Virus record (IMG/VR): IMGVR_UViG_3300010939_000106
Location: 1-51,213 of that record
Strand: one strand, 5' to 3'
DNA: 51,213 bases
Origin: a virus
Taxonomy: Duplodnaviria; Caudoviricetes
Numbering within the stretch: position 1 is the stretch's first letter; each line of letters starts with the position of its first letter. This document shows, in pieces, positions 12,197-33,175 of this stretch. The notes beneath the pieces are model-generated. The model was given only the letters and a program-made list of their open reading frames with translations, ran no database searches and was not told the DNA's origin. The translations under genes and the position numbers were made by a program.

Positions 12197-12279
12197 TCAG
12201 CACTCAGCAAAAATCTAAGCTGACGGCTGACAGGCTGACGGCTGACGGCTGACGGCTGACGGCTGACGGCTGACGGCTG
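12183..12279. repeat. Heptamer tandem array (GCTGACG)n with an inverted (TCAGCAC)n arm
   Basis: tcagcgatcagcactcagcactcagc-aaaaatctaa-gctgacggctgacaggctgacggctgacgg..., about 8 right-arm units. Confidence 0.9.
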
Positions 12280-28405: not shown

Positions 28406-29948
28406 CGCTAGTGCTGTCGGCCAGGCTCAGGTTCTGCTGGCCGCCCTCCTTGAGACCGATCCCGCTGAAGCCATGCTGTCCGCCGGTGAACCGGCGCGGC
28501 TTGAAGCCGCGCGCCTTGAGCGCGTCGGCGAACTGCCGCTCCTTACCAATCCATTCCTTCGCCACCTCGGCCCACGCCCTCCAATCGCCGAACAGCTCGC
28601 GCGTCAACGCGGCCTGATCCACGCCGACCGCGCAGCGCTCCTCGATCCAGCGGCCGATCACGTCCTCGGCCTCGAAGTAATCCCCCGTCGCGGCGCGGAC
28701 CGCGTCGGGCGGAGAGAGCCCGATCTTCTGCCAGTCGAGCGCCCCCTCGACCGCCCACGCCAGGATCCCGGGCCACTCCCGCTTGAGCCTGTCCGAGAGC
28801 TTCTTGTCGGGCTTGGGCGGCACATGCTGGAACGGCACGATGTTCAGGCGCCGGCGCATCGCCGCGTCGACGCTCCTCACCGTCGGGCGATAATTCCCGG
28901 CCATGAACAGCTTGAAGGTGGGCAAGAAGCTGAAGAAGTCCTGGCGCATCTGGCGCGCGGTGATCCGGTCGCCGCCGGTGATCGCCTTCAATTTCGCCTC
29001 GTCCCAGCGCCGCCCCTCCTCGGTCTCGGTCGCGATCACCAGCCGCCGCCCGGCCAGCATCGCCAGCTCGGTCGGATGGCGCTCGCCGCGGCTCACCGTG
29101 AACACGTCCATCGGCGCCGTCGTCGCATAGTCCCCCATGATTCCCGACAACGCGTTCAAAAACACGCTCTTGCCCGCCCCGCCGGGGCCGAAGGCGAAGA
29201 ACACCGCGTGTTCCTCGATCGAGCCCGTCAGGCAATAGCCGGCGATCCGCTTGAGATACGCCTGGAGCTCCTTGTCGCCCCCGGTCGCCTCGTGCAGGTA
29301 GCGCTCCCACCTCGGCGCCGCCGCGCTGAGCATCGCGTCCTTGAGCCCGCCGCTTGAACCTGCGGTTGGCTTTCCTGCGGTTAGCCTTCCTGCGGTTAGC
29401 CTAGGCCCGACCGGCGTGATCCTGGTCATCTTGGCCGCCGGGTCGTGCGGGCTCGCCCGCCCGGTCGCGAGGTCGACGATCCCCTCGGGCGTGTTCAGGG
29501 TCATCGGGTTGACATCGAACTCCTCGAGGCTCGCGGCGTGGCGCCGGTCGGTCCCGGCGAGCGTGGCGATGGCGTAGATCGTCTTCTTCGACGACACCTG
29601 GGCCGCCGAGTGCGGGGTCGGGCAGTGCCCCGCCGCGGTGCGGCAGATCCGGCGCGCCACGTCCCACAACTTCTTGGTCTTCTCCGGGGCCCACCGCTTG
29701 CCGTCCCAGCGGAGCCAGACATCGCTCGCGCCCAGGTGCAGCCACTTGCCCTCGAGCCGGTCGGACAGCATGAGCGCCAGGGCGTCGTCGGAGAACTGGA
29801 TCGGTCGCTCTTGGCTGTCCGGCGGCTCGCCTTCAGACCCGCCGCCGGACCTGCGGTCAGCATCCAAGCCGCTGATCTCCGCCGCCCCGGCCTGGTCGAG
29901 ATGCAACCGCACCACCTTGGCGCCCTTGCCCGCCTTTTCATCCGCCAT
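28386..29948 (-). CDS. P4-family / D5-like SF3 helicase
   Basis: WLRWDGKRW, LNTPEGIVDL, Walker A GPGGAGKS, LKAITGGDRITAR, AMRRRLNIVPF. Confidence 0.93.
   Translation of the reverse strand: MADEKAGKGAKVVRLHLDQAGAAEISGLDADRRSGGGSEGEPPDSQERPIQFSDDALALMLSDRLEGKWLHLGASDVWLRWDGKRWAPEKTKKLWDVARRICRTAAGHCPTPHSAAQVSSKKTIYAIATLAGTDRRHAASLEEFDVNPMTLNTPEGIVDLATGRASPHDPAAKMTRITPVGPRLTAGRLTAGKPTAGSSGGLKDAMLSAAAPRWERYLHEATGGDKELQAYLKRIAGYCLTGSIEEHAVFFAFGPGGAGKSVFLNALSGIMGDYATTAPMDVFTVSRGERHPTELAMLAGRRLVIATETEEGRRWDEAKLKAITGGDRITARQMRQDFFSFLPTFKLFMAGNYRPTVRSVDAAMRRRLNIVPFQHVPPKPDKKLSDRLKREWPGILAWAVEGALDWQKIGLSPPDAVRAATGDYFEAEDVIGRWIEERCAVGVDQAALTRELFGDWRAWAEVAKEWIGKERQFADALKARGFKPRRFTGGQHGFSGIGLKEGGQQNLSLADSTSDEPWEH
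29356..29402. repeat. 15-bp unit CCTGCGGTT(G/A)GC x3 inside the helicase gene
   Basis: gaacctgcggttggctttcctgcggttagccttcctgcggttagcct, encoding RLTAGRLTAGKPTAG. Confidence 0.8.
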
Positions 29949-30384
29949 GATCAGCTTTCAGTGTACGGCCACGCTTTGGCTGACGGCTGACGGCTGACGG
30001 CTCGCTTTCAAGGTTCTTGCATATCCACCTCACCAGCTTGGGATTGTCGCGGAAGACCGTCGCGAAGCCGTTGCTAAAGAGGAGCGCGGCTTGTTCCTGG
30101 CCGATCATCTCATTGTCGCCGCGGCCCCATACCGACCAGATCGCGTGGCTTAGCTCGTGCAGCATGGTGCTCGCCACATTATGGGCATCGAGGCCAAGGT
30201 CGATCCAGATATAGCCGAGGCTGCTGCTGCACGACCCGAACTTCTGCTCGTTGACGGCCTGGGCATGATCGGCCAGATATACCTCGTAGTCGCGGAAGCC
30301 GATCTTGATTCGTCCGGGCGGCTTGCCGCGCGTGGCCCGGCTTGGCGGGATCGTCGGGTTGATCATGGGCTTTTCCTCACTCAT
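29938..30384 (-). CDS. Small HExxH metalloprotein
   Basis: IKIGFRDYEV...TMLHELSHAIW. Confidence 0.65.
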   Translation of the reverse strand: MSEEKPMINPTIPPSRATRGKPPGRIKIGFRDYEVYLADHAQAVNEQKFGSCSSSLGYIWIDLGLDAHNVASTMLHELSHAIWSVWGRGDNEMIGQEQAALLFSNGFATVFRDNPKLVRWICKNLESEPSAVSRQPKRGRTLKADHGG

Positions 30385-32120
30385 CCAACCTCCGCGAGTA
30401 ATGGCTCGGCGTTCGCCTCAAAATCGTCGATGCGCCGGCCGATCCAGCCCATGACCGGCACCGCCATCGCGTTCCCTATCGCGCGGTAGCGCGGCCCGTC
30501 GGGGCAGTCCTCGGCGGGCCTGCCGCGCCAGGGGATCCGGGTGAACCCACGCGGGAAACCTTGGAGGGCCTCGCACTCCTCGACCGTTAATCTGCGGACT
30601 GCGTAAGTTCCATGTGTTGGTTGACCTTGACCGCCATCGGATTGCCCCACTTCTTCCAGCGTTGATAGTGCTTGTCGCAGTAGCCGTGACCCTTCATCGG
30701 CTTTCCGCAGACAACGCACGAGGCGCGCCGCCGGTGAAGGCGCATATGGCAGGAGCGACAGAGCCGCTCCAAGTTCTCCGGCGAGTTGTTCAGATGGTCG
30801 CCATCCCTGTGGTGGACGTCCAAGGCATCCGGCGCGCCACAGCGAGAGCACGACCCCTTCGGGACAACCTTGCGCGAATGCCAGTGCATAGTCGACCAGT
30901 CCGTGCTTCGGCTCGGTCGGGCATCGAACGCCGCGGCCATGCAGGAACGATCGCAGTATTTCCGGCGCCGGAAGTGAAGCAACGACTCCAAGACCCCATT
31001 CCTGAAACGCTTGCGCTCCAACCGCTTGTCGCAATGTGCGCAGTAGCGCAACGGTGTCGGCTTCCTCGGATAGGCCATAATTGTCCTCCGTCTTGCAGGA
31101 GAATGCGATGGCCGGAACGCCGCTCGTGATCCCGCCATCACCACGTCTCAGGCTTGGCAGATGTGTACCCACGTTCCCCCCGTCGCATTGCACCGGCACC
31201 AGCGGCGGGCCGCGCAAGATCGACTGATCCATGCCGTCCTCGCTGGCGTCCGCGCCCTCGGCGGTCAAGGCATGGCACACGAACGTCTCGGACGCGAAGT
31301 CCTGGCGGCCGTGCGCCCCCGTGTGGGCGGTGCGGGCGGTGGCCACGTCTAGCGGCCCTCGCGTCCGGTTGCCGCCATAGGCGAGGACGGCGTTTCGCAT
31401 CCGGCCGTCCTTGCCGGCGGCCGCCCCGCCGTGCTTTCCAAGGCTCGCCGTAATTGGATCGGCAACTCCTTGCCCCGCCGCGCGGCGCGGCGCAGGATGC
31501 CCCGACAGGCTTTCGGGCTCAAAAAGTACCGCCGCAGATGGTCGCCAGTCTCCAAGATATCCGACAACGAAGACGCGACGGCGGCGCTGGGGGACTCCGA
31601 AATATTGAGCGTCAAGCACTCGCCAGCAGCCAAGATACCCGCTGTCCCGTAGCGTGCTGAGGAAGGCCGCGAAATCACTGTTTTCGATAAATTCCATAAA
31701 TCCCCCTGACTGTCCCGGCTGTCCCGGCGGTATTTCGTCCGCCGATGCACCGCTCCAATTGGACAGGAGGCCGGGGACGTTCTCGAATACCAGCCAGCGG
31801 GGCCGAAGCTCGCGAGCCACGCGAAGATAGACCAGCGCCAGGTTGCCGCGCGGGTCGTCCAGGCCGAGCCGTTTGCCGGCGACCGAGAACGACTGGCAGG
31901 GCGTTCCTGCGATAAGAAGGTCAACTGGCCCATGATCCCGCGCCCTTTCCGCGAAGTCCGGTGCCGCCACGTCGCCCAGGTTCGGCGCGTCCGGCCAGTG
32001 GTGCGCCAGGACGGCGGAGCAGAACCGGTCGGTCTCGGCGATCCACGCCGGCGGCCCCCACAGATCCGCCCACGCCAGCTCCGGCGCGCCGATCCCTGAA
32101 AAGCACGACGCCCATTTCAC
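30381..32120 (-). CDS. C5 DNA cytosine methyltransferase with a long insert in the variable region
   Basis: Motif I FSGIG, IV GTPCQSFS, VI ENV, VIII VPQRRRRVF, IX RRLTVEECEALQGFP, X RYRAIGNAMAVP. Confidence 0.92.
   Translation of the reverse strand: MKWASCFSGIGAPELAWADLWGPPAWIAETDRFCSAVLAHHWPDAPNLGDVAAPDFAERARDHGPVDLLIAGTPCQSFSVAGKRLGLDDPRGNLALVYLRVARELRPRWLVFENVPGLLSNWSGASADEIPPGQPGQSGGFMEFIENSDFAAFLSTLRDSGYLGCWRVLDAQYFGVPQRRRRVFVVGYLGDWRPSAAVLFEPESLSGHPAPRRAAGQGVADPITASLGKHGGAAAGKDGRMRNAVLAYGGNRTRGPLDVATARTAHTGAHGRQDFASETFVCHALTAEGADASEDGMDQSILRGPPLVPVQCDGGNVGTHLPSLRRGDGGITSGVPAIAFSCKTEDNYGLSEEADTVALLRTLRQAVGAQAFQEWGLGVVASLPAPEILRSFLHGRGVRCPTEPKHGLVDYALAFAQGCPEGVVLSLWRAGCLGRPPQGWRPSEQLAGELGAALSLLPYAPSPAARLVRCLRKADEGSRLLRQALSTLEEVGQSDGGQGQPTHGTYAVRRLTVEECEALQGFPRGFTRIPWRGRPAEDCPDGPRYRAIGNAMAVPVMGWIGRRIDDFEANAEPLLAEVG
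30587..31078 (-). CDS. HNH endonuclease nested in an alternative frame of the methyltransferase
   Basis: RBS GGAGG 6 nt before ATG; CAHC...YCDRSC; CSRCG...DVHHRDGDHLNNSPENLERLCRSCHMRLH; CVVC...GYCDKHY. Confidence 0.8.
   Translation of the reverse strand: MAYPRKPTPLRYCAHCDKRLERKRFRNGVLESLLHFRRRKYCDRSCMAAAFDARPSRSTDWSTMHWHSRKVVPKGSCSRCGAPDALDVHHRDGDHLNNSPENLERLCRSCHMRLHRRRASCVVCGKPMKGHGYCDKHYQRWKKWGNPMAVKVNQHMELTQSAD
31349..31933 (-). CDS. Alternative-frame ORF inside the methyltransferase (possible beta-subunit-type polypeptide)
   Basis: Protein-like segment GECLTLNISESP...SSLSDILETG...YFLSPKACRGILRRAARRGKELP..LRRALE. Confidence 0.55.
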   Translation of the reverse strand: MGQLTFLSQERPASRSRSPANGSAWTTRAATWRWSIFAWLASFGPAGWYSRTSPASCPIGAVHRRTKYRRDSRDSQGDLWNLSKTVISRPSSARYGTAGILAAGECLTLNISESPSAAVASSLSDILETGDHLRRYFLSPKACRGILRRAARRGKELPIQLRRALESTAGRPPARTAGCETPSSPMAATGREGR

Positions 32121-33175
32121 GCGCTCACCTCCGCCTCGACCCCGGTAAGCAGGTCGTTGAAGTCGTGGGTCCCATCGGGCGGCCGGGCGATCAAAACCTT
32201 CCGCCCCTGGCCGGTGAACGCCTCCACGGCGCGCGCGAGCCCTTTCTTGGCGCCCTTGTTCGCGCCGTCGTTGTCGGCGCAGATCAGCACCCGCTCGACC
32301 GCCCCCGGCAGCACCACGTTCTTCATGTTGCCGAGGTGGACGGCCGCCAGTACGCGCAACTCGGGCTTGGCGATGGCGACCGTAAGCCCGTCCTCGATTC
32401 CCTCGGTGAGCGCGACCGTCTCGCCCGGCCCGGCTTGCTCAAGCGGTCGTCCGCTCGCCCCCTGCCACAGCCGGATCGCGCCGCCTGCATAGCGCCCCAG
32501 CGTCATCTTCGGTTCCTCCAAAGGCGCCTTGCTGACGGCTGAGGGCTGACGGCTGTCTATCGCCAGCCACGTCCGGTGAACTGCGGCGAAACCCCCGGCC
32601 GGATCCAGGACTGCGGCCAGCAAGGCCGGCCAGAACTTGCCGCTCTCGCGGTTCCAGCAGTTGCCGTGGAAGCGCAGCGCCCGGGGCTGGCGGGAACAGC
32701 CTTGGCTGTCCTTCAAGCTCGCGAGATCGATTCCTCGGCCCGCCAGATAAGCCGCCGCTGGCGTCTCCCTGAGCCGTTCGCTCGCCCCCCGCCACAGCCG
32801 GAGCGCGCGCTCGCGATTCTGGTTTTCCTCCGCTCGAGCGGCAGCCGCCTTCGTGGCTCGGTCTTGCTTTGCTAACGGCTGACGGCTGACGGCTGACGGC
32901 TGATGGCTCTCCAACAAACGCGCCACCGCTTGCGCAAAGGACAGGTTGTCCATGTGCATGATGAAGCCGATGACATCGCCATGGGCGCCGCAACCGAAGC
33001 AGTGATAGAACCCTTTGTCCTCGTTGACCGTGAAGGACGGGGTCTTCTCGTTATGGAAGGGGCACAGGCCGAGGTACTCCCGGCCCCGCTTCTTCAACTG
33101 CACCCGACGCCCGATCGCCTCAGCCAGCGGCGCGCGGCCGCGGAGCTCATCAAGAAACTCGGGCGTGAAGGTCAT
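32117..33175 (-). CDS. DNA primase (CHC2 zinc finger + Toprim)
   Basis: GLCPFHNEKTPSF...YHCFGCG; LTEGIEDG; ICADND; DFND. Confidence 0.92.
   Translation of the reverse strand: MTFTPEFLDELRGRAPLAEAIGRRVQLKKRGREYLGLCPFHNEKTPSFTVNEDKGFYHCFGCGAHGDVIGFIMHMDNLSFAQAVARLLESHQPSAVSRQPLAKQDRATKAAAARAEENQNRERALRLWRGASERLRETPAAAYLAGRGIDLASLKDSQGCSRQPRALRFHGNCWNRESGKFWPALLAAVLDPAGGFAAVHRTWLAIDSRQPSAVSKAPLEEPKMTLGRYAGGAIRLWQGASGRPLEQAGPGETVALTEGIEDGLTVAIAKPELRVLAAVHLGNMKNVVLPGAVERVLICADNDGANKGAKKGLARAVEAFTGQGRKVLIARPPDGTHDFNDLLTGVEAEVSA

Follow-up and report, generated by a model that had tools for sequence, protein, structure and literature searches.

How can a phage carry a homing-type nuclease gene in the middle of a conserved enzyme gene when neither an intron nor an intein is there to remove it? 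This question is raised by the virus record IMGVR_UViG_3300010939_000106 (Duplodnaviria; Caudoviricetes), whose entire 51,213 bases were analysed (referred to here as the window; completeness estimate 91%). An open reading frame (ORF) for an HNH endonuclease lies there on the same strand as, and in another frame within, an uninterrupted gene for a C5 cytosine DNA methyltransferase. The dual coding is maintained by selection, as is directly seen from the methyltransferase frame, which contains no stop across the HNH ORF in any of 118 distinct HNH alleles. We consider it quite probable that the arrangement represents a selfish homing-type HNH gene that is carried in a phage C5 methyltransferase gene without the help of an intron or intein.

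The methyltransferase and the HNH gene inside it

The host gene occupies positions 30381..32120 on the minus strand, as do all features of this locus described below, and starts with GTG. Its product of 579 aa matches PF00145 in two stretches (E 1.8e-44) and combines, in a single ORF, motif IV (PCQ, 31893-31901), motif VI (ENV, 31776-31784), the QxRxR of motif VIII, an invaded-type variant of motif IX (VRRLTVEECEALQGFP, codons at 30552-30599), and the GN of motif X (30471-30476). By its sequence, the ORF is a C5 cytosine methyltransferase, presumably a catalytically active one.

The HNH ORF (30587..31078, 163 aa) starts with ATG and is read in the +1 frame of the methyltransferase, i.e., the first base of its codons is position 2 of the methyltransferase codons. 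A Shine-Dalgarno-like (SD) sequence GGAGG (31085..31089) is located 6 nt before the ATG, within the methyltransferase codons T-E-D. In motif IX, the invariant RRLT sequence supplies the stop codon of the HNH ORF (TAA, 30587-30589): its first two bases are the end of the Leu codon, and its last base opens the Thr codon. RRLT contains the HNH stop in most other alleles as well. The methyltransferase frame remains without a stop across the whole HNH ORF and then leads straight into motifs IX and X. The original prediction, which was made from the letters of the window alone, had described precisely this layout, namely a 163-codon HNH ORF with a GGAGG ribosome-binding site, three Cys clusters, and an intact HNH motif within a methyltransferase frame that stays open up to motifs IX and X, and it is confirmed by the coordinates as well as by the Pfam matches and the alignment presented next.

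The 163-aa product scores above the gathering cut-offs of the Pfam families HNH_3 (PF13392; 26.9 bits, cut-off 24.8) and HNH (PF01844; 25.1 bits, cut-off 21.4), contains three Cys4-type zinc clusters in addition to the His-Asn-His core, and matches nine HNH families of PHROG. A protein search delivered 218 homologues, of which the 120 listed are 116-237 aa long (mostly ~163 aa) and 51-73% identical, and the proteins in the HNH alignment (A2) are 51-72% identical to the HNH of the window. In a 70-member alignment, 24 columns are invariant, covering all Cys residues of the three zinc clusters together with the catalytic His and Asn residues (H89, H90, N102, H111, and H115). The AlphaFold2 model based on these 70 members reaches a mean predicted local distance difference test (pLDDT) score of 91.6; when the model was compared with the PDB by Foldseek, nothing reached E<=0.001, and just weak rows for the HNH core were obtained. 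The HNH ORF is thus a real and conserved gene.

The element occupies one site across the alleles, and the flanking ORF shows the C5 motifs in every allele for which enough flanking sequence is available. In the 89 alleles that are matched from residue 1 onwards, the start codon is ATG in 87, and an SD core (GGAG, GAGG, or AGGA) is found 4-17 nt before the start in 48, versus 13.8% of 4,750 control windows. The protein database lacks the HNH of the window itself, as would be expected if gene callers report just the longer methyltransferase. For genome annotation this means that gene callers deliver the methyltransferase only and that nucleases of this type, including the one in the window, become invisible.

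Selection on the open methyltransferase frame

Alleles were collected with HNH peptide patterns only, and the sample is therefore independent of the state of the methyltransferase frame. Scans with a single HNH protein supplied 30 viral loci and 4 genome loci (the scan of genome contigs returned four relatives of the HNH core and no member of the family), and scans with the alignment supplied the best 80 each of 307 relatives from metagenomes and 125 from viruses, so that 160 of about 430 detected relatives were covered. With tblastn, 162 loci matched, 151 of them near full-length, which correspond to 118 distinct HNH DNA alleles including that of the window. These alleles are 41-72% identical to the window HNH.

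In all 118 alleles, the number of methyltransferase-frame stops across the HNH ORF is zero, as opposed to 632 stops (median 4 per allele) in the other same-strand frame. When the synonymous codons of each allele were shuffled 2000 times while protein sequence and codon usage were kept, 848 stops were predicted for the methyltransferase frame, i.e., 7.2 per allele, and only 0.23 open alleles were expected. For the control frame the same procedure predicted 599 stops, close to the 632 observed. The window allele by itself has 5.4 predicted stops, and none of its 2000 shuffles was open. The avoidance can be traced to individual codons: a methyltransferase-frame stop arises when an HNH codon has a T at its third base and the next codon starts with AA, AG, or GA, and at such at-risk positions T is found in 0 of 5,686 codons, compared with 25.9% of the remaining 14,445 (0/38 versus 20% of 125 for the window allele). 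The four-fold synonymous sites are just 46% identical between alleles, so that stops have had many chances to appear. The comparison of diverged HNH alleles with synonymous shuffling had been proposed together with the original prediction, and its outcome supports the idea put forward there that dual coding takes the place of splicing.

A high GC content at third codon positions was considered as a cause of the open frame as well, since the original prediction had cautioned that it makes this particular frame easier to keep open. This explanation is ruled out by the shuffling and by the count of T at the at-risk codons, and the caveat is thereby removed.

The cultured Staphylococcus phage CUB-EPI_14 is the sole near full-length match to the window HNH in a tblastn search of 50,697 GenBank phage records. 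Its HNH is 49% identical to that of the window, lies inside gp45 in the same +1 frame, and is preceded by AGGAGG before the ATG. At 35% GC, the gp45 frame contains 0 stops versus 11.1 expected. Here, too, the nuclease is hidden from annotation: gp45 is recorded just as a DNA-cytosine methyltransferase, and the HNH is unannotated.

What the ribosome would make of the HNH region in the methyltransferase frame looks like a passenger peptide. At four-fold synonymous sites, the identity between alleles is 0.456 in the HNH ORF and 0.503 in the single-coding N-terminal domain of the methyltransferase, as measured in the 51 loci in which this domain is complete. The overlap thus goes along with no additional conservation at these sites, and the idea that selection acts on the host-frame peptide was rejected for this reason. 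The host-frame segment, which includes ..LRTLRQAVGAQAFQEWGLG.., has no Pfam domain. AlphaFold2 models most of the catalytic parts of the 579-aa protein (residues 1-210 and 510-579) with pLDDT >90; residues 211-350 fall below 50, and residues 351-507 have a mean of ~57 with several helices at 70-81. The locus is an unusually clean natural example of selection keeping a second frame open without constraining the peptide that this frame encodes.

These data also bear on two explanations that would make the overlap a secondary matter. The first is that the segment is an insert excised from the translated protein in the manner of an intein, or else that it belongs to the methyltransferase as a true domain in which an HNH-like frame arose secondarily. 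The insertion is indeed in frame and at a conserved site, and the host-frame segment can be aligned between homologues at 36-58% identity; this level of identity, however, fits conservation through codon positions 1 and 2 of the HNH only, and the four-fold sites likewise indicate that the host-frame peptide is conserved through the HNH alone. The Hint or intein domain of Pfam is absent from the 579-aa protein, and the inserted tract starts with Thr and ends with ..GFT before Arg, whereas an intein would call for Cys or Ser at the N-junction and for His-Asn followed by Cys, Ser, or Thr at the C-junction. Given in addition the gap between the mean pLDDT of the segment and that of the HNH frame, there is next to no chance that this explanation is right.

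The second is that the HNH is encoded by a self-splicing intron, or that the tract is excised from the RNA in some other way, with the open host frame being incidental. HNH ORFs are common in group I introns of phages, as stated in the 2025 paper on the ShiLan domain of mycobacteriophages (PMC11855218 section 3.5), and a site in a highly conserved motif is usual for introns. If the tract were excised before translation, however, the open frame in every allele would be unexplained. Moreover, Rfam covariance models, including those for group I and group II intron cores, gave 0 matches at E<=1 on both strands of positions 30000-32300, and the ~13 nt on the 5' side and ~47 nt on the 3' side of the ORF are too little for a ribozyme core. 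We hence regard an intron as highly improbable; the original prediction had likewise seen neither intron nor intein features.

Origin of the inserted tract

The borders of the insertion become visible when the methyltransferase of the window is aligned (alignment A1) with its closest relatives, P0002 and P0003, which are 83-84% identical to it and lack the insert. As had been suggested with the original prediction, this comparison with insert-free homologues defines the junctions at the protein level: the flanks match up to 31092 (..AFSCK) and again from 30539 (RIPWRGRP..), leaving an inserted tract at 30540..31091 of 552 nt or 184 methyltransferase-frame codons (TEDNYG...PRGFT) that comprises the SD sequence, the HNH ORF, and an element-type motif IX. 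The HNH ORF nearly fills the tract. The GC content of the tract is 61.1%, compared with 67.8% for the rest of the gene. The 184 codons stand in place of ~37 residues that belong to the last conserved target-recognition module (..D.G.D...APTLRA..SH.NAGGQ.AVA), which is present in P0002 and P0003, absent from the methyltransferase of the window, and retained in other insert-bearing homologues such as P0005.

The tract also exchanges motif IX. Relative to P0002 and P0003, the canonical RRLTPRECERLQGLPDDHT is replaced by RRLTVEECEALQGFPRGFT, and the version of the window reads RRLTVEECEALQGFPRG. For comparison, 80 loci (L195-L274) were fetched with the insert-free P0003; their uninvaded motif IX reads RRLTPRECERLQGFPDD, and among the 57 distinct sites obtained from the 68 loci with a motif IX match, E-R-LQGFP-D is found in 56. 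At invaded sites of class I (n=107; class II is described below), 68 are variants with an R after GFP and 27 are canonical. The element-type motif IX may thus be a co-converted copy of the target, possibly one that is immune to cleavage.

The distribution of the insert is patchy. While the two nearest methyltransferases lack it, the insert-bearing relatives are only 36-58% identical to the methyltransferase of the window. The insert is present in 100 and missing in 20 of the best 120 methyltransferase matches, a split that is biased because the query itself contained the insert, and no HNH relative was found in the 80 loci fetched with P0003. Furthermore, the identities of the HNH and of the methyltransferase N-terminal domain are uncorrelated (Spearman rho 0.09, 1,275 pairs). 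Individual pairs are decoupled in both directions: the HNHs of L158 and L131 are 94% identical in hosts that share 55%, and those of L119 and L091 are 70% identical in hosts that share 97%. From the patchy distribution and the uncorrelated identities, the element appears to be mobile.

A different view of the locus, which the original prediction had mentioned as an alternative, is a cooperative one-locus pair of methylase and nuclease, in which the HNH would be a functional partner (e.g., a restriction-like or packaging nuclease) that is co-expressed and co-inherited with the methyltransferase and is not mobile. In favour of this view, the host gene and the site of the HNH are always the same, one transcript would couple both activities, and the Discussion of the ShiLan paper brings up the idea that methylases might use an HNH for DNA binding (PMC11855218). 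Such a pair nevertheless fits poorly with a patchy distribution in which the nearest methyltransferases, 20 of the best 120 matches, and all loci found with the insert-free query do without the HNH, as well as with the lack of correlation between nuclease and host and the lower GC content of the tract, which makes the pair improbable.

For the preferred reading, a selfish homing-type gene, we propose the following course of events. An element of ~550 nt, consisting of the SD sequence, the HNH ORF, and its own motif IX codons, follows the target-recognition region and precedes motif IX. Ribosomes loaded at the GTG of the methyltransferase would cross the element in frame 0, adding ~165 poorly structured residues, and then reach motifs IX and X, giving one continuous and presumably active methyltransferase. 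Ribosomes that start at the internal SD/ATG would read the +1 frame and produce the HNH enzyme, stopping inside the RRLT codons. Synonymous HNH codons that create TAA, TAG, or TGA in the methyltransferase frame are purged by selection. During co-infection, the putative nuclease would presumably cut insert-free methyltransferase alleles near motif IX, and repair would copy the element, together with the element-type motif IX, into the cut allele, by which the carrier would become immune.

Several observations weigh against this reading. A clear SD core is lacking in 41 of the 89 alleles, and a search of sequencing runs found no RNA run that contains the window sequence; the one run found to contain it may stem from the source sample. 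As the last target-recognition module is missing, the specificity of the window methyltransferase may be altered or lost. The junctions are defined by protein alignment alone; the DNA of P0002 and P0003 was searched for among viral contigs and not found, the best match being 52% identical. The low pLDDT of residues 211-350 and of the insert means that the structural model says little on whether the insert is tolerated. The 118 alleles with open frames are related and do not represent independent events. Since 27 of the 107 invaded class I sites are canonical at motif IX, immunity by motif IX substitution cannot be general. Finally, about a tenth of the alleles in this element family, namely 11 distinct alleles and none of them that of the window, do contain a stop in the methyltransferase frame within motif IX, which reads RRLTP-Leu-STOP-Leu-EC(E/C)RLQGFP.

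Leu-stop-Leu alleles, known systems, and neighbouring genes

The 11 interrupted alleles (class II) are those of loci L036, L104, L105, L114, L115, L146, L169, L175, L177, L179, and L276. Ten of them belong to the 118 alleles, and their methyltransferase frame is likewise open throughout the HNH, which ends ~13 codons earlier than in the other alleles; L276 is without an HNH in the ~2.4 kb that were examined ahead of the site. Of the stops, 8 are TGA, 2 are TAG, and 1 is TAA, and each is preceded by CTT or CTC and followed by CTN. The codons of motifs IX-X behind the stop are intact in all 11, with one extra base in L115 and L177 that places the C-terminus in the +1 frame. In three further alleles (L004, L071, and L152), an insertion of 2-3 sense codons is seen at this position. 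A scan with the TGA form of the pattern gave 4 stretches (1 new and real, L276; 1 known; 2 unrelated), and a scan with the TAG form gave 17, of which 4 are known loci (L279, L287, L290, and one more) and the rest unrelated.

The interruption travels with the element, as seen from L169 and L175, which are 95-97% identical through the stop to about +44 and 58-73% identical thereafter. Behind the stop, 51 of 165 nt differ between these two alleles, compared with an identity of 80-97% in the element region. This divergence fits different host genes, and the ratio of nonsynonymous to synonymous substitution rates (dN/dS) behind the stop is therefore uninformative on selection after the insertion. 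A quick HNH tree with weak support scatters the class II alleles, which may still have a single origin.

The Leu-stop-Leu sequence is a candidate for a natural stop-hop or readthrough site, described here for the first time. A hop from Leu to Leu would yield the canonical RRLTPLEC in 11/11 alleles, whereas readthrough would add two residues. One may imagine, although we think it unlikely, that the interruption of 6 nt shields the carrier against the nuclease it encodes, while a Leu-to-Leu stop-hop of the ribosomes restores the canonical RRLTPLECERLQ. The other frame breaks or broken HNHs that occur in L115, L169, L177, and L179 count against a stop-hop, and the class II methyltransferases may instead simply be truncated. 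A 2016 review on recoding describes synthetic 'stop-hops' and states that a natural in-frame case is unknown (PMC5009743). The Leu-stop-Leu variants are candidates on which natural stop-hopping can be tested.

In the low-GC locus L179, and also in L177 and L276, a second HNH of the same family was observed at a greater distance upstream, still within the methyltransferase region. In these three loci, the segments of the methyltransferase are in different frames, and the C-terminus continues into a second methyltransferase start (..GSLFDGIGGFPL..). These loci are either decayed genes or more complex arrangements.

If stop-hopping did take place, class II would be a natural short-range counterpart of the cassette formed by the HNH gene mobA and the bypass of gene 60 in phage T4 (Manning and Atkins, bioRxiv 10.1101/2022.08.31.505936). 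As is proposed for the C5 lineage, the T4 system consists of a mobile HNH element that has repeatedly entered a conserved phage enzyme gene at a single site, and its element carries a sequence that the ribosome has to handle so that the host protein still gets made; the class II stop between matched codons also resembles a pair of take-off and landing sites. By the same source, the T4 HNH gene lies beside a gap of 50 nt that is untranslated and bypassed, whereas in the window the whole HNH would be translated through in another frame. The possible gap in class II would measure only 3-4 nt, compared with the 50 nt reported there for T4, and a bypass of it is hypothetical. In connection with the T4 cassette, a study of Bonocora et al. 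from 2011 is reportedly relevant as well.

The design of a hidden out-of-frame HNH has itself already been published, in 2025 and for DNA methylases of actinobacteriophages that belong to a different family. The ShiLan domain is an insertion in the mycobacteriophage methylase gp65 with a stop-free host frame and an out-of-frame HNH of 195 aa (Genes 2025;16:178, PMC11855218), and a second case is the insertion in gp60 of Pacc40 (Arsenault, Gosselin, Gogarten, PMC11855218); the study covers ten phages plus Pacc40, and selection was not tested in it (PMC11855218). Like these, the window contains a same-strand, out-of-frame HNH ORF with flanking zinc fingers in a stop-free phage methylase ORF, without an intron or intein signature and with a disjunct distribution among related methylases. 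The poor predicted fold of the host-frame peptide and the position of the HNH stop at the extreme 3' end of the insertion (TAAC in ShiLan, TTA ACG in the window) are shared as well.

Host family, frame, and HNH lineage differ, however, and the window represents a separate lineage that works as ShiLan does, and is not a member of the ShiLan family proper. The ShiLan host is an N6_N4 amino-methyltransferase (PF01555) instead of a C5 enzyme (PF00145), and the start codon of its HNH is a GTG that falls on position 3 of the host codons, with no ribosome-binding site reported by the authors, as opposed to the 163-aa HNH of the window, which starts with ATG on codon position 2 downstream of GGAGG. 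The two HNHs share 26% identity over 114 residues (E 1e-4), and ShiLan is absent from the tblastn matches of the window HNH at E<=1e-3 among the 50,697 phage records. When the shuffle test was applied to the ShiLan HNH (L193, Mycobacterium phage ShiLan 8516-9103; accession taken from PMC10453261), it passed only modestly: 0 stops were found versus 2.34 expected (P = 0.017 for this single allele), compared with the 7.2 expected stops per allele in the C5 lineage.

In the covered literature on out-of-frame HNHs in methyltransferases, supplements aside, only PMC11855218 and a genome announcement (PMC12613952) touch the design, and the C5 lineage appears in neither; searches for overprinting homing endonucleases and for HNH and methyltransferase genes in overlapping alternative frames found nothing. 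The splicing-free carriage of a homing-type nuclease by overlapping frames is not a curiosity of a few mycobacteriophages, but widespread and maintained by selection, and it reaches an unrelated methyltransferase superfamily, a range from 35% to about 70% GC, and a cultured Staphylococcus phage among its carriers.

Among the phage homing endonucleases are free-standing ones and those borne by introns or inteins, with T4 Seg/Mob and I-HmuI as examples. What the element of the window would share with these is a site-specific nuclease at a conserved site of a host gene, a patchy distribution, and co-converted flanks. It differs in that there is no splicing element and that its position is not intergenic; it is the overlapping frames that spare the host gene.

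The methyltransferase of the window is surrounded by replication genes, namely those of a DnaG-type primase and of a D5_N/DUF5906 protein. An ORF of 148 aa (29938-30384, minus strand) starts immediately behind the methyltransferase stop and contains an HExxH-like motif (MLHELSH); it has no Pfam match at E<=0.01. Arrays of the 7-base unit GCTGACG were additionally observed on the plus strand at 12219-12276, 29979-30000, 32531-32552, and 32871-32906, and a probe of two units matches the window 14 times versus 0.33 expected. Two of these arrays are located inside the primase ORF (32117-33175), where they are translated as SAVSRQP repeats, and one is found where the ORF that follows the methyltransferase ends.

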